Source of the DNA: an uncultured delta proteobacterium
Lineage (GTDB): Bacteria > Myxococcota_A > Polyangia > Polyangiales > Houyiibacteriaceae
Direction of reading: 5' to 3'
Length of the DNA stretch: 64,000 nt
Assembly: GCA_963699755.1 (NCBI GenBank)
Contig: CAVOVB010000001.1
Span: forward strand, 1,887,989 to 1,951,988
Below, in pieces: positions 228-15,594 of the stretch. Position 1 is the first letter of the stretch, and each line of letters starts with the position of its first letter. Made by a program: the position numbers and the translations under genes. The notes beneath the pieces were generated by a model. That model was not told the origin of the DNA and did no database searches. It worked only from the letters and a program-made list of their open reading frames with translations.

Positions 228-1032
228 ATGAGCTTACGAAGTGTCGTCGGCAGCTCCCTCGGAACAGTGCTGGTCTTCATGACTGGCATGGGCTGCGCGT
301 CCAAGTCTTGTCCCCCATGCGACGCGGCAGCCGTGTCTGCCAAGAAGTCCGAGGGCTCGGGCGGTGAGTCGGCCTCTGGGGTGTACTACGCGCTACCCGG
401 CCTGGAGCATGGACTACTCCAGTCCCCGGTGAACATCCTTTCCGGCGAGGCCGAAGACGGGCGCCACACTATCCATTTCAGTGTTGGAGATGGTGCAGAC
501 CAGGTACAGAATCTCGGACACACCGTGCAGCTCGACTTCCGGAGGGGCATCACGACGGAGTTCGATGGCAACAGGTACGAGTTCATGCAGCTTCATTTTC
601 ACACGCCCTCCGAGCATCTCGTCGACGGAATCACCTATCCCATGGAGATGCACTTGGTGCATTCACGTCCCGGTCTTTCGTCCGATGATCCACCCAACTA
701 CTTAGTCGTGGCACTTCTCTTCCGGATGGGGAAGCCCAATCAATTCATCGAAGAGTTCCTCGATGCAATTCCGACGCAGGAAGGCCGTTCGGCCAAGCTC
801 GACGAGGTGTTTGTCGAGGACGTGCTTGGTTCGGGCTTGGATGTCGAGAGCATTGACTATTTTCACTACCGTGGCTCGCTGACGACACCTCCGTACACCG
901 AATGCGTCGATTGGATGGTAGCCAAACAGATCGTCGACGCGGGGCCAGCTCAAATCCAACGGATTCACCTCGTCGAGGGCGACAACGCGCGACACATTCA
1001 ACGCCTGGGTGGCCGCGACGATCGACGAGTAG
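228..1032 (+). CDS. cah: Alpha-class carbonic anhydrase, probable lipoprotein (1-nt frameshift just before the stop)
   Basis: QSPVNI, QLHFHTPSEH, EMHLVH, YRGSLTTPP and DNAR motifs; N-terminal hydrophobic stretch ending MGC. Removing one base near 1017 gives ...GRTIDE-TAG at 1030-1032. Confidence 0.88.
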
Positions 1033-1079
1033 CAAATGTTTTTCACCGCAGATCGCATCGACTGCGCTACGCTTCGCCG

Positions 1080-1998
1080 GTGACCGACTCCGAACATAGC
1101 GCGCTGCGCGAGCGGGTTTCCGGCCGTGCCGTCGCGATCACCGGCGCTTCGAGCGGGATTGGCGAAGCGCTGGCCAATCGGTTGGGGGACGCCGGGGCAA
1201 AGGTCCTGCTCGTCGCGCGATCCGCCGACAAGCTCGAAGACATGAAGCAAGAGCATCGAGGGGCGCGGCGGAACGGCATTCGCGTATCCTGGCGACTTAT
1301 CGAACGCCGAGGACACCGAGCGTCTGATCGCTGCCATTCTTGCTGACCACGGCCAAGTCGATATCCTCGTCAACAATGCAGGAATCTCGATTCGCCGAAG
1401 TGTCGCCAAGTCGTACGATCGGGTGCACGACTTCGAGCGGACGCTCGCTCTCAATTTCTTGGGCGCGGTGCGTCTCATCATGGGATTTCTTCCGGGTATG
1501 CGCGCACAGAAGAGCGGGCAGATCCTCAACGTGTCGACGATCGGGGTCCAGGTGAACGTTCCGCGCTACGGCGCTTACATCGCGAGCAAGGCGGCGCTCG
1601 ACGCGTTCAGTCGAGTCCTGGCAGTCGAAGCGCTGAAGGACGGGGTCAAGGTCACGACGATCTACATGCCATTGGTCAAGACGCCGATGATGAAATCGAC
1701 GACGATTTACGACTCGTTTCCGATGCGGAGCGCCGTAGAAGCTGCCGACCTAGTGGCGGACGGCATCGTCCATCAGCCGAAACGGGTGGCCACCCCTGTC
1801 GGAAATCTATTCGAATTCGCCTATGGGGTGGCGCCGAACGTCGTCGATCGCATTCTGAACGCCGCATACCAGCTCTACCCTGAGTCGGGTGACAAAAAGG
1901 ACCAGCGCGAGCCAGCAAGCGGCGACGCCGCGATGTTTCAGCGCGTGTTCAAGGCCGTTGCGCGTCGGGCGAGACGTCGAGCGTCTGGACGACGGTAA
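1080..1998 (+). CDS. SDR oxidoreductase, fatty acyl-CoA reductase (Acr1)-like; frameshift near 1250
   Basis: TGASSGIG in one frame; VNNAGISIRRS, DFERT and YIASK (YxxxK) in the other frame. Confidence 0.82.
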
Positions 1999-2009
1999 CG
2001 GGCTGGGCA

Positions 2010-3336
2010 TCACGCTCGGTGACGCGCTCGAGCCGCCGAACGGTCTGTCCTGGAAACAGAGCCCATGATGAGGAGCGTGGCCATCAACATCGTCAGTACG
2101 GCTGCTTCACGTCTGGTCAGGTCACGTTCCCCGATGTGCCTGGAAGATCCGCTGAACAACGTGAAGAACGCTCGCATCACAGCGATCCCGTTGAGCGCCG
2201 TCGCGGCGATCAATGCAAAGGCAAGTAGCGGGAACTCATCGACCGATCCCTGAACCAAGAGGTCTTCGGCTACGAAACCGAGCGTCAGCGGCAGGCCTAC
2301 ACTTGCAAAACCCATGAAGAGAAAAGCGACAGCCATGCGCGGCGTTCGGGTGAAACTCCCGCCCGGGACATTGACCGAAAGATTCCCACGCCGGGCTTCG
2401 AGAGAGGCGAGCGTCATTGCGAAGCCGGCGGTTGCCACGCCTATCACTTGCCATGTGAGCAATGCGCCAATCTGGGCAACGGGAGAGCTCGTATCCAGGC
2501 CGAAGGCCACGAGCCCTGTCTGGCTCATTATCAAGAATGCGAGCGCACGCCGCGCGTCCGTTTGTGCAATGCCGAGAGCTGCGGCGACCACCGCAGTGAT
2601 CGCACCGAGAGACGCCACGCCGTGAGCAAGTTGCGACGGGAGCTCCCCTCGGAGCAACTCGAGATGCGCATAGACGCCCAGTTGCGGTGCAAAGAACGCC
2701 ACAACGAGTCCCATGGGTGCGTATTGCACGAACGGGGGGAACCAACTGTGAAGCGGGATCACGGCTTCGCGAATTCCGATGCCGGCGAGGAGAAACACGA
2801 GCCCAACCGTGGACTCGCCTCGACTGAGCAGCACCGCGCCGATTCCAAGCGCGACGACACTCGGCACATGATAAATGGCGAACAACCTCGCCGTACTTCG
2901 AGTTCGTCGCATCTCTCGCAACTCGAGCCACACGATGAGCGCCGAAGCGCCCCAGAGGACGGCAAGCCCGATCGGATGGCGAATGACCAGGAAGACCAAC
3001 GCGATCGCGATGAGAAGCAAAATCCTCGCGAATGTCTTTGGACGCGTTCCACGAATTGGACTGAGGACGATCGCGGCATAGCCGATCAGGCAGGTAATCA
3101 AGGAGAATGCGGGAGCCCAGGAGTGCGGGTCCTCCATCGCGACCCAGTCGGCGGATCGCTCGAGCATGGGAGCTCCTGAGTACGCGCCAGCTGACGTGGG
3201 TGAGCGCAAGCAAGCCGGTGAGACCCATCGCGTAGCTAGCGCGGTGACGGGCTGTTCGTGACGAGGGCGAGCGCGCGACGAACCAGGCCATGGGGAGGAG
3301 AAGAAGGAGTTGCAGAGCCGCAAATACGAGTGTCAT
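2010..3336 (-). CDS. NuoM/MrpD-like proton-conducting membrane subunit (frameshift near 3180)
   Basis: Multi-TM protein with IREAVIPLHSW and GLPLTLGFVAED motifs. The start at 3336 overlaps the dabB stop (ATGA), and the N-terminus lies in a different frame from the body. Confidence 0.75.
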
Positions 3337-4700
3337 GACGTGACCTCGTCCCGCTGCTGACGTGACTTCTTGGCCGGTGTTGGTTTCGTGAGATAGTCAA
3401 CCCAGGCCCGGTCCAGTCGATCCAGCCACGAGAGCACGGCCAGCGCTCGCCCAATGACGTGGTCCTTGAGAAAAGCGTCGAAGCCCCCGCGCTCTAGAGC
3501 GACGCGATAGAGCCAGGGCTGCAGTGCCGTCGGCACCAGGCGTTCGAGATGTCCGCCGGTTCGGGGGAGCTGCTTTCCCATCGCTTGTTCGAGATGATGG
3601 TAGTCGTGAAGGAGACTCGGCGAACGGAGGATCTGGAGCGTTCGAATGGCGGCATGGCCGACGATATGGGCCACGGCGAGGTGGTAGAAGCCAAGGCCGA
3701 TCTCCACGTAGATCAGCCCAACTTGGGTCATCGACGCGTATGCGAGGGCGCTTTTGATGTCGCTTTGCGTGCGGCCCACGAACGTCGCGTGCAGCGCCGT
3801 GAGCGCTCCCACGGCGACTACCGAGCCCGCTGCGACCCCGGAGAACTCGAGAATCGATGTGGCGCGAAGCAGGAGATAGGGCCCGAGATGAATGGAGAGC
3901 GCCCCATAAAAGACGGCGCTCGAAGGAGTGGGACCTTCCATCGCACGGGGCAGCCATCCGGACAGGGGCACTTGGGCCGCTTTGCCCATCGACGCCCAGA
4001 GAAGGAGCAAGCCGACCACGGTCGCCCCGAGCACGGTGTCCGGAACGACGAAGCTCGCCCATGGACCCGTCGGGGAAGGTACGACATCGGAGGTACCGAC
4101 CATCTGGTGAAGTGCAACGGCGGCGGAGAGCAAACCGATATCACAGAGCCGATAGGTGACGAAGGCACGGAGGCCGTGCTCGACCGGCGCGCGCCTCTCG
4201 TGGAAGAACGCGATTAAGAGAGCGGACGTCAGGCCGACGAGCTCCCATCCGATAAAGGCCAAGTCCAGGCTTCCCGCGAGGACCACGAACTCGACCGCAG
4301 CGCCAAAAATGGTCAGCAGCAGGTAGAACCGTGAGAAACCCGGCTCGCGGTGCAAATACCTCCGCGAGAATGCCGCGACGAGGCCGAGCAAAGCAGCCGA
4401 GAAGATTGCAAACGGGATCGACAGATGATCGGCGACGAGACTCCAATCGAACGAATAGTGTTTGGCAGAGAACCAGCTGCCCAAGTGCACGCGGACTTCC
4501 GCGAAATCGCGCAGCAGAAGCCATCCCGCAGTCAGCGTAGATGAGGCTAGGGAAGCGCTGAACGCCAAACCTACGATCGTGACGGTCGCTCGCTCGCTCC
4601 AGGCTCGATCGAGCCAGGCCCGCAAGCCGAGCACGAAGACGGCGAGCATCGGAAAGCCTACGATGCCAATCACCAAGCCATCGACAAGCGTTTCCATCAT
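3333..4700 (-). CDS. dabB: DAB inorganic carbon pump membrane subunit (NuoL-like)
   Basis: WELVG and KAAQVPLSGWLPRAMEGPTPSSA NuoL-family motifs; ATGA overlap with dabA. Confidence 0.88.
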   Translation of the reverse strand: MMETLVDGLVIGIVGFPMLAVFVLGLRAWLDRAWSERATVTIVGLAFSASLASSTLTAGWLLLRDFAEVRVHLGSWFSAKHYSFDWSLVADHLSIPFAIFSAALLGLVAAFSRRYLHREPGFSRFYLLLTIFGAAVEFVVLAGSLDLAFIGWELVGLTSALLIAFFHERRAPVEHGLRAFVTYRLCDIGLLSAAVALHQMVGTSDVVPSPTGPWASFVVPDTVLGATVVGLLLLWASMGKAAQVPLSGWLPRAMEGPTPSSAVFYGALSIHLGPYLLLRATSILEFSGVAAGSVVAVGALTALHATFVGRTQSDIKSALAYASMTQVGLIYVEIGLGFYHLAVAHIVGHAAIRTLQILRSPSLLHDYHHLEQAMGKQLPRTGGHLERLVPTALQPWLYRVALERGGFDAFLKDHVIGRALAVLSWLDRLDRAWVDYLTKPTPAKKSRQQRDEVTS

Positions 4701-7678
4701 GCCGCACCGTATTCGAGCAACCCGGCCTTGACGTGGGCCGGGCTCAAATGCCCTCGCCGGCCGGAGTAGAAGTCGACGGAACGGCCGACTACGGCGATGG
4801 CGGGATTTTCCGGAACATACGGCTGAAATCGCCGATTCTCGTAGACCGCCACGGCGTCGCTTCTTGGGTCCCAAGCGACCAGTTGGATCCACTCGTTGTT
4901 CACCAAGTTCGCAAGTGCCGAGTCGCGTTCGAGAATGCGCACCAACTCCTCGGTTTCCGCCTCGACGATCGTGAGTAGCCGAACCGGCTCGTGGATCTCC
5001 ACCATTTGCCAAGGGAGACCCGTTCTCAAGTCCGATGCGTGCCCATCCATCACACCGACGAGCCCGACGATGTTGTGGGGAAGCTTGGTCCCGCAACCGT
5101 AGCCCGTGGGATCGACGAAGCTGAAGTAATATTCCAGGTTGATCCCGGCGCCGACCGGTCCAACCGAGCGAAGGAGCTGAGCCAGAATCGCCCCGGTCGA
5201 GTCGCTCTCGGGATCATACGACACGAGAAAGGCCCGCCGATCTAGAAACAACCCACGTGTCCGTGCACGGCGGCCCACGATGCAAACGGCGTTGGTTGCA
5301 TGCCCATACTCGGGCCTTGGCTGCGCGAGATCGTAGGCGTGCGCCTCGGCGTGTGCCAGCGCTGCCTCGGGATCCAGACCCAGGGGCGCTGACTCGAAAC
5401 GGCGACAGCGCTCGTGCGCATCAAGTCGGCAGGCGTCTGCAAACGCGCGCTTCGCGTCCGCCAGCGCCTCCAGCGACTCTGCCGGGACCCGATCTTCTTC
5501 GTAGTACGTCATCGAGTCGTCGCAGGTGTTGTGATATGCGCCGACGAACCAGGTCGAATCAGGGATGACGAGTCCTCTGCTTCGAAGCCGTTCTCGAACC
5601 CGTGGTTCATTGGCCATCTCAGCGAAGGCACGCGCGTTGGGGCCCCCGCGTCCCCCACCCGTCGCACCGCAGTCGTGTGCCGCTTCGTGAGGGTTGTTGA
5701 GACTCGAGGAGCCATGCCCGACGATCAGGACCAGCGACGACAACTGTCCCGCCATCCCCATCGTCGTAAGTGCTCCGGACACGACATCCGCCATTTCATC
5801 GATCGTGTAGCCCAACGCGAGCCCGTCGGGTCGCTCGCCTGGAGCGCGTTCGAGGCACAAGCGCGTCGGAGGCATGGGTGCTGTCCTGTGCGAGATCCTG
5901 TGCGCTAGACGCTCCGTGGCGCGAGGAAACAGGCTCCTCCCAAGAAGTGGGATGATCGCCAAGAATCCGAACAAGGCAGAGAGGACCCCGCCGCGGGTCA
6001 GCATTTTGCTTCCGAGTCCGATCGAGTGAGTCATTTGTCCTCGTCTGCGACGCTTCTCGGCAAACACGGCAGCTTCGCCCTCGTCGAGGGCGCGTTCCCT
6101 GACGTAGTGGCTTGGGAGAACGGCCACAGGGCATAGCGGCCTCGGACGAATGTCCTCGATGCCCTGATACGCCATCGCGATGCCAAAGAAGCCCGCGTAT
6201 CCGAAGGTCTCGACGTCCGGCCGAATCTCTTCGAGGTGCCTGCGAAGCGACTCCTCGCGATCGTCGATACAGAATACGGCTTGAAAGCGAGGTTGTGCCG
6301 CTTGCCTGCGTTTGAATCGGCAGTGACCCACGATTCCGTCGAGCACCCCGATGCGGTGCCTTCTTTCATACGCGAGGTGCAAGAGCCGGCGCCGTTCGTT
6401 CGAATCGAATCCGCCGACCTCTTCGAGCCAGCGCTTCGCTGCTTCCCGTCCTCCAAGCTCCGCCGGCCCGAGTCCGGCGAGCTGGGCCGTGATGAAGCCT
6501 TCGTAGACGAGCTCGAGATCGAGGTCGCTCTCTCGTTTGGCGTCCGTCCGAAGCGATAGCATCTCAGCGAACGCGTCCGGCCCACCAGCCCGTGTTCGAA
6601 TGACGAAGCGAGCGGCGTGCAGGTCGAGGCTGAGCTGCAGCGCGAGGTAGTCGAGGAGTCGGGCGCGGGGAGGGTCGACGGGCGCCGTGTCGGGACGCAG
6701 CTCCAGCTGCCGAATCATGCCCGCCCAACCTGGAAGCGACAACAGGGTCTCTTCGATGTACCCAGCCCATTGCGCGTGGGGGACATCGAGCTCTTCCAGT
6801 GCCCAGCGCACCGTCCGGTCTGCGTCCCATCGCTCGCTTTGCTGGAGTCTCAGCTGCTTTGAAAGCCCTTCCATCCAGCGATCGGAAGGACCCGACCCGA
6901 TTCCGTAGAGAGAGCGGAAGACTTCGAGCAAACCCGCATCTCGTCCCGGCATCTCCCAATACGCGATCCCCTGATCGACGAAAGCGGCGCAGACACGAAT
7001 CAGAAGGGGGTGGACGAAGTGATCGGTATCAATGCCGCAGACTTCGAGGATCTGGTCGCGCCGCCTGATGCCGGTGCGGGCGCGGGGGGAGGTCGGAGCG
7101 ACGGCGAGCAGCTCCCTCCAGATCTGCTCGAGGGCCTGCTCTTCACGCGCCTCTGGCGTGCTGGAGTTCCCGCCGAGGGAGACACGCTCGGCGGACTGAA
7201 GGATCGCAGCCCGGGCCGACTCCGGCACGCGACGGTGGAAGCGAAACAGCGTCCCCGTCTCTTCGAGCATCCAGTTGAGCGCAGGACCCTGTGGGATCTC
7301 GAAGAGATTGCTCAGACGTATGGCCCGCATCTCCCGTCGCGTCGGCCCTCCGGCTATCACAGGGCCTCCTGAGTCCTCGATGGACGCGTTGACTACGTTT
7401 TCAATGTCGGCCGAACGAATTCTCGCCGACTCGATGCACTCGTCGAAGGCTGCTTCGGACTGGTAAGGCTCGGTACCGAAGCGCGCAGCGGCCTCGACGA
7501 CGGCTTCTTCGAAGTGAAGGTGCTCAAAGGCATGCAAGGTGTTGTGATGAACGAACATATGCAGCGGAGACTGCTGAGGAAGCAGGTGCGCTGCGTGGTC
7601 GAGCAGCTCACCAAGCGTCGCGTTCGCAGTCGATTTCGAGCTGGACAGGCTGAGAGACTCGCTTGCAACGGAGGTCAT
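4697..7678 (-). CDS. dabA: DAB inorganic carbon pump soluble subunit (DUF2309/UPF0753)
   Basis: FVHHNTLHAFE, FCIDDREES, GHGS-x-DCG, RPEYGHA, INLEYYFS and HEPVRL motifs. Start placed at the ATGA overlap with the sulP stop. Confidence 0.92.
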   Translation of the reverse strand: MTSVASESLSLSSSKSTANATLGELLDHAAHLLPQQSPLHMFVHHNTLHAFEHLHFEEAVVEAAARFGTEPYQSEAAFDECIESARIRSADIENVVNASIEDSGGPVIAGGPTRREMRAIRLSNLFEIPQGPALNWMLEETGTLFRFHRRVPESARAAILQSAERVSLGGNSSTPEAREEQALEQIWRELLAVAPTSPRARTGIRRRDQILEVCGIDTDHFVHPLLIRVCAAFVDQGIAYWEMPGRDAGLLEVFRSLYGIGSGPSDRWMEGLSKQLRLQQSERWDADRTVRWALEELDVPHAQWAGYIEETLLSLPGWAGMIRQLELRPDTAPVDPPRARLLDYLALQLSLDLHAARFVIRTRAGGPDAFAEMLSLRTDAKRESDLDLELVYEGFITAQLAGLGPAELGGREAAKRWLEEVGGFDSNERRRLLHLAYERRHRIGVLDGIVGHCRFKRRQAAQPRFQAVFCIDDREESLRRHLEEIRPDVETFGYAGFFGIAMAYQGIEDIRPRPLCPVAVLPSHYVRERALDEGEAAVFAEKRRRRGQMTHSIGLGSKMLTRGGVLSALFGFLAIIPLLGRSLFPRATERLAHRISHRTAPMPPTRLCLERAPGERPDGLALGYTIDEMADVVSGALTTMGMAGQLSSLVLIVGHGSSSLNNPHEAAHDCGATGGGRGGPNARAFAEMANEPRVRERLRSRGLVIPDSTWFVGAYHNTCDDSMTYYEEDRVPAESLEALADAKRAFADACRLDAHERCRRFESAPLGLDPEAALAHAEAHAYDLAQPRPEYGHATNAVCIVGRRARTRGLFLDRRAFLVSYDPESDSTGAILAQLLRSVGPVGAGINLEYYFSFVDPTGYGCGTKLPHNIVGLVGVMDGHASDLRTGLPWQMVEIHEPVRLLTIVEAETEELVRILERDSALANLVNNEWIQLVAWDPRSDAVAVYENRRFQPYVPENPAIAVVGRSVDFYSGRRGHLSPAHVKAGLLEYGAA

Positions 7679-9276
7679 GAAGCGGTCCTTCGACGGGTTG
7701 AGTGCGGATGCGGCGAATGCGGCGTCAGTGCCTCGATCCCCACCACCTCCAATTCCACATTCGGCCACTCGTTGGATAGACCCTCGAGGCGACTCAAGAA
7801 CGTATGGTCAACGATCGCGGCGTCGGTCACATCGATCACCACTTTCCGGCAGGAAGGATCGAGATCCGCGAGGGACTTCCTGACCGAGATGAGGCTCGTG
7901 AAAGCCGCTGCACCGTGCAGCGTCAAGCGCAATTCGGAGCCTTGCTGACTCTTCTCGACGCGCGCACGGAAGATCTGGCTGAAAGTCGCCCCGCGGACGC
8001 GGTGCAAAATGACCTTGAGCACGAGGCCGGCTGCGACGCCAATTAGAAGGTCGGTCGCGAGAGTGATGATGAGTGTAGTGACGAAGAGGGCGAGCTGATC
8101 CAGACCGATCTGTTTGACGTGCCACAGCTCACGGGGTGATGCGAGTCGTGCGCCGGTGTAGACCAGCATTGCCGCCAAGGCCGCGAGCGGAATTTCGTGC
8201 AGCAAGCCGGGAGCCAGAGCGACGAATGTCAGCAGAAATGCGCCATGAAAAAAGTTCGCCCATCGGGACTGCGCGCCAGCATCGACGTTCGCTTTGCTTC
8301 GAACGATCTCGGAAATCATCGGAAGCCCGCCGACCAGAGACGAACAGAGGTTCCCCAAAGAAAGAGCCAGGAGATCGCGATTCAGATTCGACGGGCGCTT
8401 CTCCGGGTCCATCGAGTCGACTGCGAGCACGCTCAAGGTCGACTCGATCGTTCCGACCAGGGCGAACATCACTACGTATTTCAGGGACGCGGCACTGAAC
8501 ACCATCGAAAAATCCGGGAATACGAACGCGTCGAGGAGCGAGCCCGGTAGTTGCACCAGGAACTCCGGCCCAACGTGGAACTGGTGCGATAGAAACTGAT
8601 AGGCGTGCGAGTGGTCCAAATTGAGCCACAAGCTCAGTGGCACTGCCACCGCGAGGACCAGCACCGGAGCCGGGATGGCTTTTGCCCATCGCGTCCGAAT
8701 CAGAGGCCATCCAAAAAGGATGAGTAGCGAGAGAGCACCAAGGATCAGTATCTCGGGATTGGCATGCGCGATGCTCTTCGGAATTTCGGCGAGCAACTCC
8801 AATGGTTCCTTGGCCTCCGGCGCTACGCCCAACAGGGTGTGCACTTGCTTCGAGATGATGATCACACCGATGGCGGCCAACATGCCGTGGACCACAGAGG
8901 GAGACATCGCTACGCCGATCGAGGCGGCGCCAAGGAGGGCGAACGCAATTTGCACGCCTGCCGCGACCGTCCCGACCGCTAGGGCTCGACGGTAGCCGAG
9001 CATCGGATCTCCTCCCCCAAGCTCTTGTACCGCCCCCAATGCGATGACGATGAGTCCGGCCGCGGGCCCCTTGATCGTCAGGCGTGCGCTACCGAGAAAC
9101 GTGACGATGACCCCTCCGATGATCGCGGTCAGAACGCCCGCGATCGGGGGGAATCCACTGGCCATCGCGATCCCCAGGGAGAGGGGAAGGGCGATCAGGA
9201 AAACTAAGAAACCTGCCTTCAAATCGGCAACTGGGAACGGGCTGCGTGGCCCTTCCTTCGATACAACATTCGACAT
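7675..9276 (-). CDS. sulP: SulP/SLC26 family anion (probably bicarbonate) transporter with short STAS-like C-terminus
   Basis: AGFLVFLIALPLSLGIAMASG, GPAAGL, GGLPMISEIVRS and IPLAALAA motifs. Confidence 0.92.
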   Translation of the reverse strand: MSNVVSKEGPRSPFPVADLKAGFLVFLIALPLSLGIAMASGFPPIAGVLTAIIGGVIVTFLGSARLTIKGPAAGLIVIALGAVQELGGGDPMLGYRRALAVGTVAAGVQIAFALLGAASIGVAMSPSVVHGMLAAIGVIIISKQVHTLLGVAPEAKEPLELLAEIPKSIAHANPEILILGALSLLILFGWPLIRTRWAKAIPAPVLVLAVAVPLSLWLNLDHSHAYQFLSHQFHVGPEFLVQLPGSLLDAFVFPDFSMVFSAASLKYVVMFALVGTIESTLSVLAVDSMDPEKRPSNLNRDLLALSLGNLCSSLVGGLPMISEIVRSKANVDAGAQSRWANFFHGAFLLTFVALAPGLLHEIPLAALAAMLVYTGARLASPRELWHVKQIGLDQLALFVTTLIITLATDLLIGVAAGLVLKVILHRVRGATFSQIFRARVEKSQQGSELRLTLHGAAAFTSLISVRKSLADLDPSCRKVVIDVTDAAIVDHTFLSRLEGLSNEWPNVELEVVGIEALTPHSPHPHSTRRRTAS

Positions 9277-9281
9277 GACAA

Positions 9282-9381
9282 TCCGCCTTCGTGCTCAGAA
9301 CACAACGTTGCCCCGGAGATCTGGGGCAATCACACACACGGGAGACGAAACCCTCGGGGGCTTCGTCAGCTGGAAGGCGGA
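9282..9381 (-). promoter_or_regulatory. Putative translational attenuator: anti-SD in leader ORF pairs with the sulP SD and encloses two hairpins
   Basis: mRNA UCCGCCUUC (9381-9373) is the perfect complement of GAAGGCGGA (9290-9282), which ends 5 nt before the sulP ATG. Internal hairpins are GACGAAGCCC/GGGUUUCGUC and UUGCCCC/GGGGCAA. Confidence 0.6.
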
Positions 9382-9749
9382 CCGCGAGCCGGATTCGACG
9401 AAACTAGCGATTGGCTGTCGAGCGGGGCTGAGGGGCAGCCATAGCTCGCAGGAGATTCGGGAGCCTCGAAAGATGGCGCGGCTAGGGGCTCGGAGCCAAG
9501 GTGGTCATCCTCGAGCGGGTCGATGAGCTCGTCGACGCTTGCGGCGAAGCGCACCACGGCAGAGCCCGGGTGCGCGTGAGATGGGGCTGCCGAGGGCTTC
9601 GCCTCGGCGCTCCGATCTGCCGTGAGATCGCCCTCCGCACGGGGAGAGAAACCCAGCACAGACACCAGAAGGAGCGCGGATAGCGCAATGCGCCGGCCTG
9701 GCCGACACCTCGCAACGCTCCAATCCAGCACCGGTTCCGTGACCATCAC
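9366..9749 (-). CDS. Secreted leader peptide with C-terminal RGPP motif (candidate ribosome-arrest peptide)
   Basis: Signal-peptide-like RRIALSALLLVSVLGFSPRAEG, a low-complexity Pro/Ser/Ala body, and a C-terminus NPARGPPSS-stop; sits directly upstream of sulP. Confidence 0.6.
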   Translation of the reverse strand: MMVTEPVLDWSVARCRPGRRIALSALLLVSVLGFSPRAEGDLTADRSAEAKPSAAPSHAHPGSAVVRFAASVDELIDPLEDDHLGSEPLAAPSFEAPESPASYGCPSAPLDSQSLVSSNPARGPPSS

Positions 9750-9875
9750 AGCCTCTCAACCCCCTGGACGGTAGAGTATTCCGTCAAAGTTCGGGGCGTG
9801 CAAGAAGGGCGCGGCGGACAGCCTGGTGCACCCCACGCTGGACGCGGGCGGCCAGGTCCGGGTATATGCCGTTCC

Positions 9876-10877
9876 GTGAACCGAGGTTTCGCGTTTGTCG
9901 TACTTCTGGCGGTCGTCCTCGTGGGGTTGCCAGGTAGCGTCCCGAGCAGTCGCGCCGAAGAGGCCGTCACCTTCCGTATTGCCTCCCTCGCGCCTGCCGG
10001 CTCGTCGTGGATGAAGGTCCTCAACGCCTGGAAGAAGACTCTCGAAAGCGAGACGGAAGGTCGGTTGAAGCTGCGTTTCTACCCGGGCGGCGCGCAAGGC
10101 GATGAGCGTGACTTCGTTCGAAAGATGCGCGTGGGGCAGCTCGACGGCGGCGTCGTCACGATGACCGGAATGAGCATGCTTGTGAGGCCAATGGTGATCT
10201 TGGTCCTGCCGAACTTCCTCGATACCTACGAGAAGCTGGACCGAGTGCGAACCAAGATGGCCGCGGACTTCGAGAAGCTCTTCGACGACGAAGGCTTCAT
10301 GATGTTGGCCTGGGGAGACGCGGGAAAGACGCGGCTCTTTTCACAAAAGGCGATCGAAAAGCCCTCGGACATCAAGTCGATGCGACCATGGATGTGGAAA
10401 GACGACCTGGTTTTCATCGAGTTCTACGACGTGATCGGAGCCAATGGCGTTCGACTGGGCGTAAACGAAGTGTACCCCGGGCTTCAGACCAAGATGGTCG
10501 ACGTGGTGACGTCTTCCGCGCTCACGGCGGTTGCACTTCAGTGGTACACGCGCGTCAAGTACATGACGGCTCACAACTCGGCGATCATCGCGGGTGGCAT
10601 GGTGATGCGTAAAGAGAAGGTCAACGCGCTTCCGGCCGACCTCAAGGCAACGTTCTTGCGGACCTGCGAGCGCGTTGAGGTCTTGCTCAGCAAGACGATT
10701 CGCCGCGACGACCAGAAGGCCTACGATGTCGTCCTCACCAAGGGGATCACTGCGACCGATACGAGCCAGTACAAGGCCGAGTGGGACGCAGCGGCCAAAA
10801 AAGTGCGGGACCGAATGACGGGGCGCGTCTTTCCAAAGAGCTTGCTTCAGGCGGTCGAAGCGGCCGCGGCCGAATAG
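9876..10877 (+). CDS. dctP: TRAP transporter substrate-binding protein DctP
   Basis: Signal peptide followed by FRIASLAPAGSSW and FYPGGAQGDERDFVRKMRVGQLDG; GTG start chosen. Confidence 0.85.
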   Translation: MNRGFAFVVLLAVVLVGLPGSVPSSRAEEAVTFRIASLAPAGSSWMKVLNAWKKTLESETEGRLKLRFYPGGAQGDERDFVRKMRVGQLDGGVVTMTGMSMLVRPMVILVLPNFLDTYEKLDRVRTKMAADFEKLFDDEGFMMLAWGDAGKTRLFSQKAIEKPSDIKSMRPWMWKDDLVFIEFYDVIGANGVRLGVNEVYPGLQTKMVDVVTSSALTAVALQWYTRVKYMTAHNSAIIAGGMVMRKEKVNALPADLKATFLRTCERVEVLLSKTIRRDDQKAYDVVLTKGITATDTSQYKAEWDAAAKKVRDRMTGRVFPKSLLQAVEAAAAE

Positions 10878-10887
10878 GTCGGCTGGC

Positions 10888-11634
10888 TCAACCGAGCGCC
10901 TCCAAATGCGCGTCGACCCTGCCTGCAATCGCGTCCCGCACTCGGTCCCGTAGGCTCGCGATGTCCTGCTCGGTGAGACCTTCGGTGGCAATCGGCTCTT
11001 CCACGCAAACGCTGATTTCGTTACCGGCGCGAATGACGAGCGAGCCCTTGTGAAGCACTTCGAAAAGGCCTGTCACCGCGACGGGCACGATGGGCACGCC
11101 GAGCTCGATCGCGATTCGAAACAGGCCGTCGTAAAAGGGGCCCACGTGACCGGTCTTGGTCCGGTGTCCCTCCGGAAAGCCGAGGATCGAATGCCCGGCA
11201 TCGACTTCGGCATGAACCGCCTCGCGGAGCGCGTCGAGTGCGCCTGCTCGATCCTTGGGAACAGGAATGGTTCCGCGCGCCTTCATGAACCAGCCGTAGA
11301 AGGGGTAGTCGAAGTGGCTCTCGAGCTCGATGCCTTGTTTGAAATGCGGTGTAGACGTGTACATCGCGACGTGATCGAGATGGCTGCTGTGATTCTGAAT
11401 GAAAATGTACGCGGTGCCGGGGTCGACGTCGGGATGCACGTCGTGGCGCTGCCGGTTGAACGTGAGTGCGAGTTGGAGCTTGCAGTAGAGGCGTTCGAGG
11501 GGCTGAACGCGGTCCGGCTTCACGAACTGGTAGAGGATCGTCAAAAATGACAGGCTCAGCACCAGGAAGCCGCCGGCGAAAACCCAGATGAACAGGCTGA
11601 CGATTCGATCCCGAGCTGTCGTGGTCTCCGTCAT
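10888..11634 (-). CDS. Lysophospholipid acyltransferase (PlsC family)
   Basis: NHSSHLD and FPEGHRT motifs. Confidence 0.9.
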   Translation of the reverse strand: MTETTTARDRIVSLFIWVFAGGFLVLSLSFLTILYQFVKPDRVQPLERLYCKLQLALTFNRQRHDVHPDVDPGTAYIFIQNHSSHLDHVAMYTSTPHFKQGIELESHFDYPFYGWFMKARGTIPVPKDRAGALDALREAVHAEVDAGHSILGFPEGHRTKTGHVGPFYDGLFRIAIELGVPIVPVAVTGLFEVLHKGSLVIRAGNEISVCVEEPIATEGLTEQDIASLRDRVRDAIAGRVDAHLEALG

Positions 11635-12524
11635 GCGATGAGCTGGATTGCCGAAGGAAGGACATCGATCGCAAGGGGCGTCAGGTGGTAGAGGTCGCCG
11701 TCGATCAGCACGGCTTGAAACGCGGGGTTCACGAATTCCACCCGGTCGACTTGCCGCGTCCAGACCTGATCGAGATCGGTGTGCGTTCCCGAAAAGATGC
11801 GGGCGAACGCGCTCACGAGGGCAGCTCTGCGGAGCGGCCCGGCCCGAACGACGTCGAGCAGGCCGTCGGCGACTCGAGCTTCCGGCGCCATCCGCATCGA
11901 ACCACCCGTGTACTGGCTGTTGGAGAACGAGCTGAGGACCGTGCGCGCCTCATCGGTCGCGCCCGCATAGCGAAGCGTGTTCTCTTCGTACCGGAGCCGC
12001 ACGACGCAAACCAGGACTGCAGCAACATACCCCGCTGCACCGAGAAATTTGAAGCGCTCGTTGGTGAGCTCGCCGGCGCGCGCGACGAAACCGGTCCCCA
12101 TCGTATTGATGAAATGCAGGACGCCGTCTTCGTGCGTCAGGCGGAGCACGTCGATGGGGGTGCTCTTGCCTCGAACGATCGCATCGGTGGCGACTTGAAG
12201 GTCGGCGATACCGAAGTCGCGCAAAAAGGAGTTGCCCGTTCCGAGCGGAAGCATGGCCAGCGCGCATTCGCCAGCAACGCCGGAGGCCATGAGTCCGTTG
12301 ACGACCTCGGCGGCAGTTCCATCACCGCCGACCGAAAGAAAACGCCGACAACCGTTACTGGCTGCGCGCCTTGCGAGCTCAGTCGCGTGCTTCGGCTCCT
12401 CGGTAAACGCGACCTTCAGCGACAGTCCGCGATGCTCCAATGCATCGAGGGCCTCCGGTGCGGCTTTTGCGCACCGTCCGCCAGCCGCCGTTCGGTTGAC
12501 GATTGCGTAGTAGGCGTCGCTCAC
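11631..12524 (-). CDS. Diacylglycerol/sphingosine kinase family lipid kinase (YegS-like)
   Basis: GGDGT, PLGTGNSF, YTGG and IDGD motifs. Confidence 0.9.
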   Translation of the reverse strand: MSDAYYAIVNRTAAGGRCAKAAPEALDALEHRGLSLKVAFTEEPKHATELARRAASNGCRRFLSVGGDGTAAEVVNGLMASGVAGECALAMLPLGTGNSFLRDFGIADLQVATDAIVRGKSTPIDVLRLTHEDGVLHFINTMGTGFVARAGELTNERFKFLGAAGYVAAVLVCVVRLRYEENTLRYAGATDEARTVLSSFSNSQYTGGSMRMAPEARVADGLLDVVRAGPLRRAALVSAFARIFSGTHTDLDQVWTRQVDRVEFVNPAFQAVLIDGDLYHLTPLAIDVLPSAIQLIA

Positions 12525-13667
12525 GGTGCGTCAGAGCTTGCTGCAGGTACCGGTTTCACGCGCAGGACTTTGCCATCACCGCTCCCGCCGTCGTTGGTAA
12601 TGTAGAGTGAGCCGTCCGGGCCCTGCCGGGGTGTGCGGAGGCGGCCTTGGTCATCGATGGCGCGTTCTTCGCCGGTCACCTCGCCCTCGGCGTCGACGAA
12701 GTAGATGTGCAGGTGCTCGGCCTTCAAAGTGGCTACCGCGAGGGCTCCAGCCCAGTTGCCCCAGGCACTGCCTTCGAGGAACGTCGCCCCCGCCAGCGCG
12801 AGGGTGGGCGAGCCGCTCGACCAGACCGCGGGCACCGCAGCTCGGGAACTTCTCCAGATCGGTCATCGGCACCGACTCGTTGTACCCTGGCACCGGATCC
12901 CAGCCGAAGTTGCCAGCGACGAGCCGATTGATTTCGTCGTCAATCGACGGACCGTGCTCAGCCGACATCCCGATTCCGTCGGATCGAAATGCCATCCCTT
13001 GGATGTTGCGATGCCCGTTCGAGTACCATCGAAACCCGCCAGCGTTGTCGGGCGCGGCTGCGCCTTCCCGATCGACGCGGAGCACTTTTCCGCCAAGGGA
13101 GTCGTCATCTTGCGGGTTCGTCCCAATTGCCGCATCGCCAGTGCCGATCCACAGAAAACCATCCGGCCCGAAGCGCGGCCGACATCCACTGTGCCGTCCC
13201 GTGCTGTAGGGCATCCCCGTCACGATGTCCTCGCGCGCAAGCACGGCGCCTCCGTCGGGGGTGCGCAATGTGAGCCGCAGCAATCGAACATCGTTGTCGC
13301 CGCCCGCGTTTGACGTGGTGCAAACGTAGACGTAGCCGTTGTTGGCGAAGTCCGGGTCGACCTCGAGCCCCATCATGCCGCCTTCGCCCCGCGGCACGAC
13401 GTCGTCTGGTGCCACGACGAAGGGCGCGGCGCCGACGCCATCGACGTAGACATGTAGACGGCCGGGCCGCTCGGTCACCAAGACAGTCCCGTTGGGAAGC
13501 CAGGCGATGTCCCAGGGCTTTTCGAGGCCGACGATGAAGTCGTCCACCTCCAAATCGATGTCGGTCGGCCCGCCGGGGCCGCTGCAGCCTCCGGCGCCGC
13601 AGCCATCACCGCCGCAGCTCGTGATCAGGAGGCATAGCGAGAGGAGGAACGACAGCGCAGGTTTCAT
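12521..13667 (-). CDS. PQQ-dependent sugar (glucose/sorbosone) dehydrogenase lipoprotein; frameshift near 12840
   Basis: Lipobox LITSC, PWDIAWLP, GEGGMMG, GHRNIQG and EHGP motifs. The C-terminus (GRLRTPRQGPDGSLYI) is in a second frame. Confidence 0.85.
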
Positions 13668-15594
13668 GGCGCGGTCACCTCGAAGGACGGGCTTTCTGCG
13701 TGGAACGTGCGGAGCTCGTCGCTGCCTTCCTGTTTCTCGCTCCCGTGAAAGATCACACGATGAGTGCCGGGTGTGGCGTCATCCGGAATCTGCCAGTGGA
13801 TGGTGACCGTAAACGCTTCGTTGATCGGCGGAGGAGGCTCCGCGAAAGGATCGAGCGGATCATAGGGCGGGATCGTGCGACTCGACTGGGTCCACGTGCC
13901 CTTCGTCGACCCATCGCTTTCGGTGGCGACCGTCGTCCATTCCGCTGTCTGCAAGCCGCTGGATCTCGAAGTGTCGGGAGCCTTGGCGGAATGCGTTGTC
14001 GGGGTGTCCTGTCCAAAACGAGACCGACATCGTCGCGCCGGCGCGTACGAGGCATCGGGTCGACTGGCAGATCTCCCCGAAGGCCGCGTCGGCGGGAGGT
14101 TCGTCGAAGTCGTTTCCCAAGGCATTGGACGCGACCAAGTTCCGCAGGTCTCCCGCGTCTAGCGAGCTTGCTCCAGGTGAGCCGTCGGCAAGCGCTTGGG
14201 CGAGGCGATCGACCTCTTGTTGAAACGCGGGCAGGGTCCACGGGCCGAACAGGGTGTGGCCGCCCTCGTATTGTTGAATGGCATACTCCTCCGGGGTCGT
14301 GATGTAACCGGCATAGTCGTTCGTGTACCCGGCGATCATGATGTACTTGGCCTCGGCGCCCAGCACGGCTCGGACCGTGTCGCGCAGCCTGCGCCCCGAC
14401 ATGGTGGTCGCCTCGCTCGGTACGAACACGATTGCGAGCTGCCCGAGTTTTGCGATCCCGACCGGGAGGGGATCTTGCTGCTCTTTCGGATACAGAATCG
14501 GTTTCGGCGCATGGCAGGCGCGGAGCTCATCGCCGATGGGAGGAGGCGAAACCACCAGCTCGACAAGAGCGTCAATCGAGGAATCGCGCTCGAGCATCCC
14601 CTCCATGAACAAGGGGTGGCCGCCGCCATCTTCGGTCGAGCCGCCCGCGAAGGCATAGCCGTACGCAGGAAAACAGGTCTTCTGCGGCCCGGCTCCGGTG
14701 AACGCGTCGTCAACTTCCAGCGCTGTGAAATCCACGGTATCAAGTCGATAGTCCAATCCGCCACGAAGCGGCTCCGATGCGGAACCGAGAAGCGCCATCG
14801 CGACGTCCAGCTGTCGCTCTCCGATGATGCGCGCGCTGTCGTAGTCGTCGACACCTGGGCCCGAATTGTCGAGGTTGAGATTGCGTGACATCTCCGCAGT
14901 TGCTCTGTGCGAAAGCCGCAACGAACTGCGGGGTCGTGTCGTTTCGCTCGAGCGCGTCGCTCCATTTCGAAGGACGCAGTCCCTTTGTGATCGGCCGAGA
15001 CCAGCAGGTTGTTGTACGTGAGCGACGTAGGGTGAACGGCGAACCAACTCAGCGCGCCGATGATCCCGTCTTCTCCCTCGAGCTTGAGAAGGGTCATCTC
15101 CTTGTCGGTGTCGTCGAGGTAGCGCGCGCGCTCCGCCTCTGGGTTTTGGGCGTAGGCGTTGGCCGAGCGATTGGCGCCAGCTGCTTCGACCTTCCGTTGA
15201 CCGAGCAGGATTCGCCCAGGTTGCAGGCTTTCGTGCGCCGACTCGATGGCGTCAGTGATTCCCTGCACGACCGCACGAAGTACGCTTGCGGAATGGATCT
15301 CTCGGAACGTATTGTTTGCTGGCGGCTCGACATCCGCGTGCGCATCGGACCCCCAACACCGGGCGCTTCCGTCCAGCAAGAGCCCGCAGCTGTGCTCTCC
15401 CCAAGCCGCCAACTGTGAGAACCGAGGGCCGACGGCTCCGCCCGCGCCTGCCGTCTCCGCCCGAACCGCTGCCACCGGCGCTCCCCCCAGCGCCGCCGCT
15501 GCCAGCTGGGCCATCCTCCGCCGAGCCGCCGCAACCGGTCGCCAACACAAACGTGAGCACCAGCAGCATCGATATTTTCGTGAGCGACGCGCAT
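13664..15594 (-). pseudogene. Neutral/alkaline ceramidase with N-terminal lipoprotein signal, Gly linker and one RCC1-like repeat; several frameshifts and apparent internal deletion
   Basis: Ceramidase motifs NRS, SWFAVHPTS, GYAFAGGSTEDG, EATTMSGRRLR and YEGGHTLFG. The N-terminal HTH-S region is absent and directly replaced by HSCGLLLDGSARCWG (RCC1-type). Confidence 0.75.

Follow-up and report, generated by a model that had tools for sequence, protein, structure and literature searches.

A candidate RGPP arrest-peptide leader with an acidic patch upstream of operons for DAB carbon pumps

The regulation of DAB carbon pumps in heterotrophs is little described, and a dab operon from an uncultured delta proteobacterium raises the question of whether a short, secreted-type reading frame at its head could serve as its switch. 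The window analyzed here (64,000 nucleotides of contig CAVOVB010000001.1, assembly GCA_963699755.1) contains such a frame, ending in RGPP close to its stop codon, directly upstream of a sulP-dabA-dabB-nuoM-like gene cluster. A related question is left by the survey of Fujiwara et al. 2025 (PMC12992588), which reports that RAPP/RGPP ORFs precede genes of many kinds, namely, what pulls on the nascent chains in cases where the gene behind the ORF does not belong to Sec. Our analysis points to a real and conserved leader that is most likely an arrest-peptide attenuator, because the motif, the length, the hydrophobic N-terminus, and an SD-masking helix under the ribosome footprint are conserved. 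Specifically, we propose, with a probability of roughly three in four, that the leader is an arrest peptide of the RAPP/RGPP class that would gate translation of the operon. Given an acidic patch at the point where the chain would traverse the membrane, this candidate stalling peptide may allow the carbon pump to be switched on by membrane voltage or external pH.

The operon and the leader at its head

All features described below lie on the minus strand of the window unless stated otherwise. The operon comprises sulP, encoding a SulP-family anion transporter of 533 aa (7675..9276; PF00916 (Sulfate_transp), E 1.6e-53), dabA, the ATG of which overlaps the sulP stop (4697..7678; PF10070 (DabA), E 1.3e-243), the NuoL-like dabB (3333..4700; PF00361 and PF00662 (Proton_antipo_M/N)), and a nuoM-like third subunit (1949..3336; PF00361 (Proton_antipo_M)). 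All three junctions are ATGA overlaps, and these, together with the Pfam identities, agree with the preliminary description of this DNA, which had proposed a translationally coupled sulP-dabA-dabB-nuoM-like operon. The adjacency of a PF10070 (DabA) gene to a PF00361 (DabB) gene, our test for a DAB operon, is found here. Bicarbonate is a candidate substrate of SulP, as read from the operon context only. In the assembly, the nuoM-like gene is frameshifted by an extra base near 3177 and apparently by a second frame change near 2060; because the gene is intact at 455-478 aa in 7/7 relatives, one of them nearly identical, these breaks are probably an assembly error.

Several observations concern the surroundings of the operon. 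Approximately 1 kb past its end, at ~200-1050 on the plus strand, lies an alpha-carbonic anhydrase domain (PF00194). The frame containing it also includes fragments of an FAD-oxidase and a short-chain dehydrogenase, which points to additional frameshifts, and two of the compared loci (L031 and L035) have a similar gene near the dab operon. Within the same assembly, contig G000:C7 (~94,000-106,700) carries a syntenic copy of window positions 1,014-13,696 at ~80% identity, leader and operon included, which is probably a related organism's contig and not a paralogue, as the assembly is 9% contaminated. A second, shorter dabA with dabB upstream is located at G000:C1:384756-387110, where the leader is absent, and several genomes of the phylum contain DabA of two types. 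The Rubisco large subunit was not found in the window's own genome (100% complete, 9% contaminated). In one RNA run (0.07 word share), contigs from relatives cover all four genes and extend up to 9263-9383, with none on 9384-9667; such contigs cannot show strand, level, or absence and were not used as evidence.

The leader frame (9749..9366) reads ...NPARGPPSS followed by a stop, the last base of which is at 9366, leaving a gap of 89 nt to the sulP ATG at 9276. The preliminary description had placed a 127-aa ORF ending in ARGPPSS-stop 89 nt before sulP; the ending and the distance agree with the coordinates, and the length does not, as the likelier start is the ATG at 9746, giving a predicted leader of 126 aa (9366..9746). 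This start is preferred because an SD-like GAGAGG lies 5 nt upstream (9752..9757), within a purine-rich block aligned in relatives, and because genus leaders keep their length with few indels, 8/13 being exactly 126 aa (ORF limits set by script). Further upstream, the alignment reveals a probable sigma-70-type promoter (9775..9803) consisting of TTGCAC (9803-9798), a 17-nt spacer, and AATACT (9780-9775), with TTGC-n19-AATACT kept in 12/13 aligned genus upstream regions; a consensus promoter scan found 0 promoters, the leader's promoter-like site falling under its threshold. A divergent frame on the plus strand (9798-10877), for a DctP-family (TRAP) binding protein, begins at this promoter region, and several DctP paralogues are present elsewhere in the same genome.

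The N-terminus of the leader (9630..9746) consists of a basic RCRPGRR, a hydrophobic IALSALLLVSVLGF, and then SPRAEG, with a maximal Kyte-Doolittle 11-mer of 2.74 (at least 2.0 in 40/40 dab leaders). Judged by hydropathy and alignment alone, this basic-hydrophobic-small pattern is signal-like, in keeping with the Sec-type signal peptide originally claimed for it. At the other end, the RGPP codons occupy 9375..9386, with the motif 2 residues from the stop. In the toeprint of CruR, the P and A sites hold the two Pro codons (PMC12992588); by analogy, the P site of a stalled ribosome is expected to hold Pro 9380-9378 and its A site Pro 9377-9375. A Pfam scan of the leader gave no family match, DUF2946 included. 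The ESM Atlas rates the leader as protein-like (2482), and its nearest named clusters there, DUF2946/DUF6769 (0.91) and SecM (0.90), are leads only.

Conservation and range of the leader

Across the six frames of this genome, RGPP occurs 34 times at 0-2 residues from a stop, which is no commoner than control tetrapeptides; the motif by itself is therefore weak and was left out of the evidence. The preliminary description had suggested looking in related genomes for RGPP/RAPP leader ORFs and for SD/anti-SD covariation upstream of sulP-dabAB, and the former are indeed found. At the genus level, A-R-[GA]-P-P-x-x-stop stands at the same distance in 11/11 orthologous sulP loci (10 genomes and the second copy in the window's own assembly; L013 lies outside the count), and 0/15 paralogous sulP loci end in the motif. 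Among five genus copies, the pN/pS of the leader is 0.61 over the whole ORF, with 0.32 in the final 10 codons and 0.42 across the acidic region, versus ~0.65 elsewhere. In an alignment of 34 leaders, the Arg and both Pro are invariant, at a mean column identity of 18%.

For the wider range, we assembled 73 dabA loci from GTDB genomes, taken from the best 80 of at least 614 stretches, of which 64 were evaluable and 9 were cut by contig ends. A leader was defined as an ORF with a hydrophobic N-terminus, ending in R[AG]PP plus 0-8 residues and located before the first operon gene. By this rule, it is present in 40/64 evaluable loci (29/39 sulP-first and 11/25 dabA-first), in records labeled Myxococcota, Actinomycetota, Planctomycetota, Gamma- and Alphaproteobacteria, Spirochaetaceae, and Thermodesulfobacteriota, and 0/2118 random anchors meet the same motif and hydrophobic-segment rule. 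In five loci with sulP behind dabB, the leader stands before dabA, indicating that it tracks the operon head and not sulP. Under the strict rule, the leader is absent from 24/64 evaluable loci, and two Streptosporangium loci with the motif followed by a long tail are missed by it. A draw of 301 genomes from the phylum gave the leader in 10/40 dabA-first loci (4 identical to earlier ones; 3 not evaluable), and none of 21 dabB-first operons, the window genome's own second dab operon included, carries it within 2.5-3.7 kb. The distribution of the leader across dab operons is patchy.

These comparisons bear on the alternative that the leader plays no part in regulation and is either a random reading frame or an ordinary small secreted protein. 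RGPP near a stop does arise by chance in this GC-rich genome, and a pN/pS of ~0.65 over most of the ORF would fit such a frame. We nevertheless consider this very improbable, as position, length, motif, and patch are kept across phyla against a background of 0/2118, and the leader stays at the operon head after gene rearrangement.

Individual loci depart from the common form. Motif variants occur in L182 (2260), L047, L055, and L086; they comprise ARSPPSA-stop in another family and, in actinomycetes, RGPP or RAPP with long tails almost reaching the sulP start. The gene order is leader-sulP-nuoM-like-dabA in L160 and L161; in L160, the acidic residues of the leader are at a more upstream position, and the L161 copy seems to be frameshifted. 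In the leaderless loci L039 and L098-L101, the front genes look to us like a LuxR-type regulator, an MpsC/DUF2294-like gene, or two-component genes. The window's own genome has a second leader (G000:C1:329032, minus strand), which is His-rich, ends in RAPPT, has 0 D/E in the slot defined below, and precedes a large gene resembling, by eye, a TonB-linked receptor. A further candidate, L154 (RTPP), was removed from the held-out set described below as a probable chance ORF. A profile built from the 34 leaders missed known leaders in genome searches and gave mostly N-terminal partial hits, making it uninformative on range; against 1.84 billion representatives, it gave 24 hits, all without gene context and 13 of them identical to training tails, and acid counts among the hits are circular.

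Pairing between the leader codons and the sulP SD

The RNA between the leader and sulP contains an anti-SD region (9368..9381) with TCCGCCTTC (9381-9373), an exact complement of the sulP SD region GAAGGCGGA (9282..9290). The perfect helix formed by 9381-9373 and 9290-9282 is present in both the MFE and the centroid fold and encloses two hairpins (fold z = -2.87), bearing out the original observation that 9 nt of the G-P-P-S codons are complementary to the sulP ribosome-binding site. Hairpin P2 (9344..9367; 10 bp) begins in the leader stop codon, and in the alignment of 10 genus sequences, 100% of its cells are paired, with a two-sided change at 1 pair. Hairpin P3 (9308..9329; 7 bp), flagged in a terminator scan as weakly terminator-like, has two-sided changes at 5/7 pairs. 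Covariation of the anti-SD helix itself did not materialize: two-sided changes are found at 0/7 pairs, 2 pairs are changed on one side, and 2 are broken in some rows. Only the window's lineage has the perfect 9-nt register on G-P-P-S. The genus consensus pairs UCCGCCU on the Ser-Ala-stop codons (position of 9374-9368), stacked on hairpin P2; the window lost this register and gained one 6 nt upstream, both lying within the stall footprint.

We modeled the effect of stalling with a ribosome footprint assumed to extend from -12 to +16 of the P-site codon. With the footprint RNA left free, 19.3 kcal/mol is needed to open the window SD, whereas 6.5 kcal/mol suffices once this RNA is removed, the latter being the structure left at the SD after modeled stalling. 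Synonymous recoding gives a null of 7.9±2.6 kcal/mol, and 0/200 recodings reach 19.3. The opening cost drops on stalling in 12/12 genus loci, and in 2/12, SD masking by the real codons is no better than after recoding (L004, 21/40; L010, 28/40). Across phyla, with the footprint used as the boundary and 6/41 loci skipped as too long, the drop is at least 2 kcal/mol in 19/35 loci, and 26/35 lie above their own null mean; in a noisier version with 60 nt upstream, a 2 kcal/mol drop is found in 11/40 loci versus 6 with a mock footprint. In favor of gating, the second Pro codon is CCT in 17/40 leaders versus 9.4% in dabA; against it, Pro-Pro codons by nature resemble an anti-SD. The overlap of the stall footprint with a control element, by which arrest uORFs are recognized, is thus found in silico for the window and is mixed across phyla. 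Of the attenuator reading as originally put forward, conservation and, in the model, the unmasking of the SD held up, and covariation of the anti-SD helix did not.

The base composition of the leader makes a second kind of control possible. In its last 150 nt, C is at 0.40-0.45 versus 0.23-0.29 for G, and the region surrounding the motif has more C than G in 95% of the 40 leaders versus 48% of dabA windows, so that Rho could act here as it does in CruR, the precedent in which control is by Rho and the signal peptide is dispensable (PMC9426467). The stalled ribosome would then hide a C-rich Rho site, and after its release, transcription would be terminated by Rho at the hairpins ahead of sulP, with SD masking being secondary or local to some lineages. 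The strong hairpin right at the leader stop is consistent with this alternative, as are the weak SD masking in many distant loci and the gaps of up to ~400 nt in planctomycetes. However, Pro/Ser-rich linkers are C-rich anyway, and the window codons hide the SD far more effectively than recoded ones do. We regard transcriptional control of this kind as possible but not probable and retain translational gating by an arrest peptide as the preferred reading.

An acidic patch before the arrest motif and its likeness to known systems

The leader carries an acidic patch, VDELIDPLEDDHLGS (9492..9536), spanning positions -50 to -36 relative to the RGPP Arg, which is a candidate sensor segment. When 40 leaders are stacked gapless on this Arg, the D/E fraction is 0.34-0.43 at -50..-36 versus 0.07-0.09 at -35..-1. 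The 15-residue slot holds 5.65 D/E versus 2.37±0.20 in shuffled sequences (2000 shuffles), and the most acidic 9-mer is centered within -52..-36 in 38/40 leaders (median center -43.5). Since the slot -50..-36 was picked by eye on this discovery set, it was tested on held-out and control leaders, leaving out six loci from genomes marked unpublished. At least 4 D/E fall in the slot in 35/40 discovery and 7/8 held-out dab leaders (42/48 together; the held-out L160 leader has 1), versus 0/54 secDF/copper control leaders (mean 0.52), related leaders not being independent, so that a p-value overstates the difference. The controls comprised 22 secDF leaders, 29 DUF2946 leaders, 2 from PCuAC loci, and 1 from DUF305 loci; the secF loci were too short to reach the leaders, and 20 upstream regions were used instead, and the DUF2946 search, which gave 1/121 in one class, was repeated in another. 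The patch has the consensus DxxExxxDD and is conserved in net charge and position, not as a fixed ligand pattern. An Asp/Glu patch at a fixed distance from the arrest motif is a new feature of dab leaders. The preliminary description had named impaired export (low PMF, or a periplasmic pH or ligand cue) as the signal; this was unspecific, and the patch that narrows it had gone unnoticed.

The feature may extend beyond dab. By hand count, at least 5 D/E fall in the slot in several, not all, of the published SulP, CBS-domain, and K+/H+ antiporter leaders, and the subtype is therefore probably wider than DAB. Looking by eye along the rows available from PMC12992588, we observe that a D/E run 30-50 residues before the motif is frequent in the RAPP leaders of Alteromonadales CBS-domain genes, K+/H+ antiporters, and NhaD, and that those of ubiquinol oxidase II have a hydrophobic segment in that region.

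As a plausible mechanism, the signal segment would direct the nascent leader chain to SecYEG, and the ribosome would stall at RG-P/P and cover the anti-SD, opening the sulP SD and allowing the coupled genes to be translated. Pull on the chain would end the stall, after which the ribosome would terminate, the helix re-form, and the operon be turned off. We consider these three steps, taken jointly and as read from sequence, quite likely. A fourth step is put forward tentatively: the patch, 38-52 residues from the peptidyl-transferase center, would sit in or at the translocon, so that the pull would depend on patch charge and on the outside-positive membrane potential or the periplasmic pH, low potential or an acid periplasm giving a long stall and switching the CO2 pump on. 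The nascent chain meets SecYEG 40-50 residues from the peptidyl-transferase center (PMC7886326), and acidic stretches are pulled by the membrane potential, releasing the SecM arrest, with basic and neutral stretches giving some release too (review PMC6028853, on Ismail 2015). DAB is PMF-driven and common in acid habitats (PMC13144422, bioRxiv 2026.05.01.722082). Induction at low potential would be costly for a PMF-spending DAB unless a pH gradient compensates. When the outside pH is low, CO2 is the dominant form, and the pump can be driven by the pH gradient. Because the pump consumes PMF and high CO2 in itself lowers the pH of the medium, the sign of the response is uncertain. Still more speculative is the general form of this reading, in which dab leaders of at least five phyla, and by eye those of some K+/H+ and Na+/H+ antiporters, would be natural nascent-chain sensors of membrane voltage or periplasmic pH, the speed of pull on a SecYEG-held patch setting translation of the CO2 pump with no receptor or transcription factor.

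The patch could instead bind a periplasmic cation (Ca2+, Mg2+, or Na+) and fold, prolonging or ending the stall, with a sign that may oppose that of our preferred model. The patch abuts the CxxC position of DUF2946 leaders, CutF senses periplasmic Cu through stalling (bioRxiv 2025.02.05.636593), and acidic-looking leaders precede K+/H+ and NhaD antiporters, by eye, in the published list; the lack of a fixed ligand pattern, with net charge and position alone kept (DxxExxxDD at 18% mean identity), makes cation binding unlikely in our view. More unlikely still is a general export monitor like SecM or ApdA, which would report the capacity of Sec/SecDF and thereby keep the synthesis of four large membrane proteins in step with it, the patch only tuning the pull. 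The architecture is the same as that of SecM/ApdA, and SecM is among the nearest named Atlas clusters (0.90), but the 22 secDF leaders lack the acidic slot (mean 0.68 D/E, none reaching 4), there are no Sec components among the downstream genes, and raising membrane-protein output under poor export is hard to rationalize.

With the arrest-peptide attenuator as the preferred reading, dab leaders form a cross-phylum subtype with a measurable, position-fixed feature that is absent from secDF and copper leaders, and the model predicts that patch charge and spacing set the response to potential or pH. If true, this would be a natural case of electrophoretic pull, so far shown with engineered constructs, and would offer a compact genetic voltage/pH reporter; among the leader carriers are cultured actinomycetes, with loci from Actinokineospora, Saccharothrix, Actinosynnema, and Pilimelia (L042, L043, L069, and L085).

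The leader shares with the RAPP/RGPP uORF class a length below 300 aa with R[AG]PP near the C-terminus (126 aa, 2 residues from the stop), an N-terminal localization signal (in the leader by hydropathy only), a motif kept while the rest diverges, and a co-oriented downstream gene. In that survey, 7/7 tested S. lividans RAPP/RGPP ORFs arrested, and the source list of its Fig. 4B holds at least 15 RAPP rows with SulP downstream, one being the Pilimelia terevasa leader also found here (L085), SulP being outside the top 30 RAPP classes (PMC12992588). SulP, DabA, and bicarbonate are absent from its main text, DabA/DUF2309 is not among the supplement rows listed, although dab-linked rows may exist in its RGPP list, and an acidic patch at a fixed distance is not mentioned in the portion covered. 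The preliminary description had known of no arrest-peptide control of a DAB carbon pump. Our literature search, subscription papers and bioRxiv supplements aside, likewise turned up no report of DAB/SulP control by an arrest peptide, nor of an acidic sensor patch, but RAPP ORFs before SulP do stand in those source data.

SecM, ApdA, ApdP, and the RQH-family monitors have in common RAGP/RAPP/RGPP arrest, an SD-hiding stem-loop, and release by pulling (PMC10987492). SecM, ApdA, and ApdP regulate sec/yidC, whereas the leader precedes sulP, dabA, dabB, and the nuoM-like gene, with no Sec or YidC gene in that set, and secDF leaders, unlike dab leaders, are without the acidic patch. The engineered acidic-stretch/SecM force reporters (Ismail et al. 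2015, via PMC6028853) likewise place an acidic stretch before an arrest peptide and show potential-dependent release; they are laboratory constructs, whereas for dab leaders, a natural regulatory use is proposed. A further likeness is to CruR (Bordetella), CutF (Rhodobacter), and DUF2946 leaders, which, like the leader, combine a signal with a sensor segment ~45 residues before the arrest motif. The CxxC of CruR lies 45 residues before RAPP at a conserved spacing (PMC9426467), and in 22/29 DUF2946 control leaders, CxxC ends 44-51 residues before the Arg. In contrast, the leader has no DUF2946 match and no CxxC, carrying the Asp/Glu patch instead, and only one CxxC, at gap 53, is found among 40 dab leaders. 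CruR and CutF control a transporter or enzyme operon, as the leader would, and CutF unmasks an SD (bioRxiv 2025.02.05.636593), the target being copper for these two and inorganic-carbon uptake for the leader. Thus, while not a member of DUF2946, the dab leader would work like CruR and CutF, through a composition-defined segment at a fixed spacing from the arrest motif.
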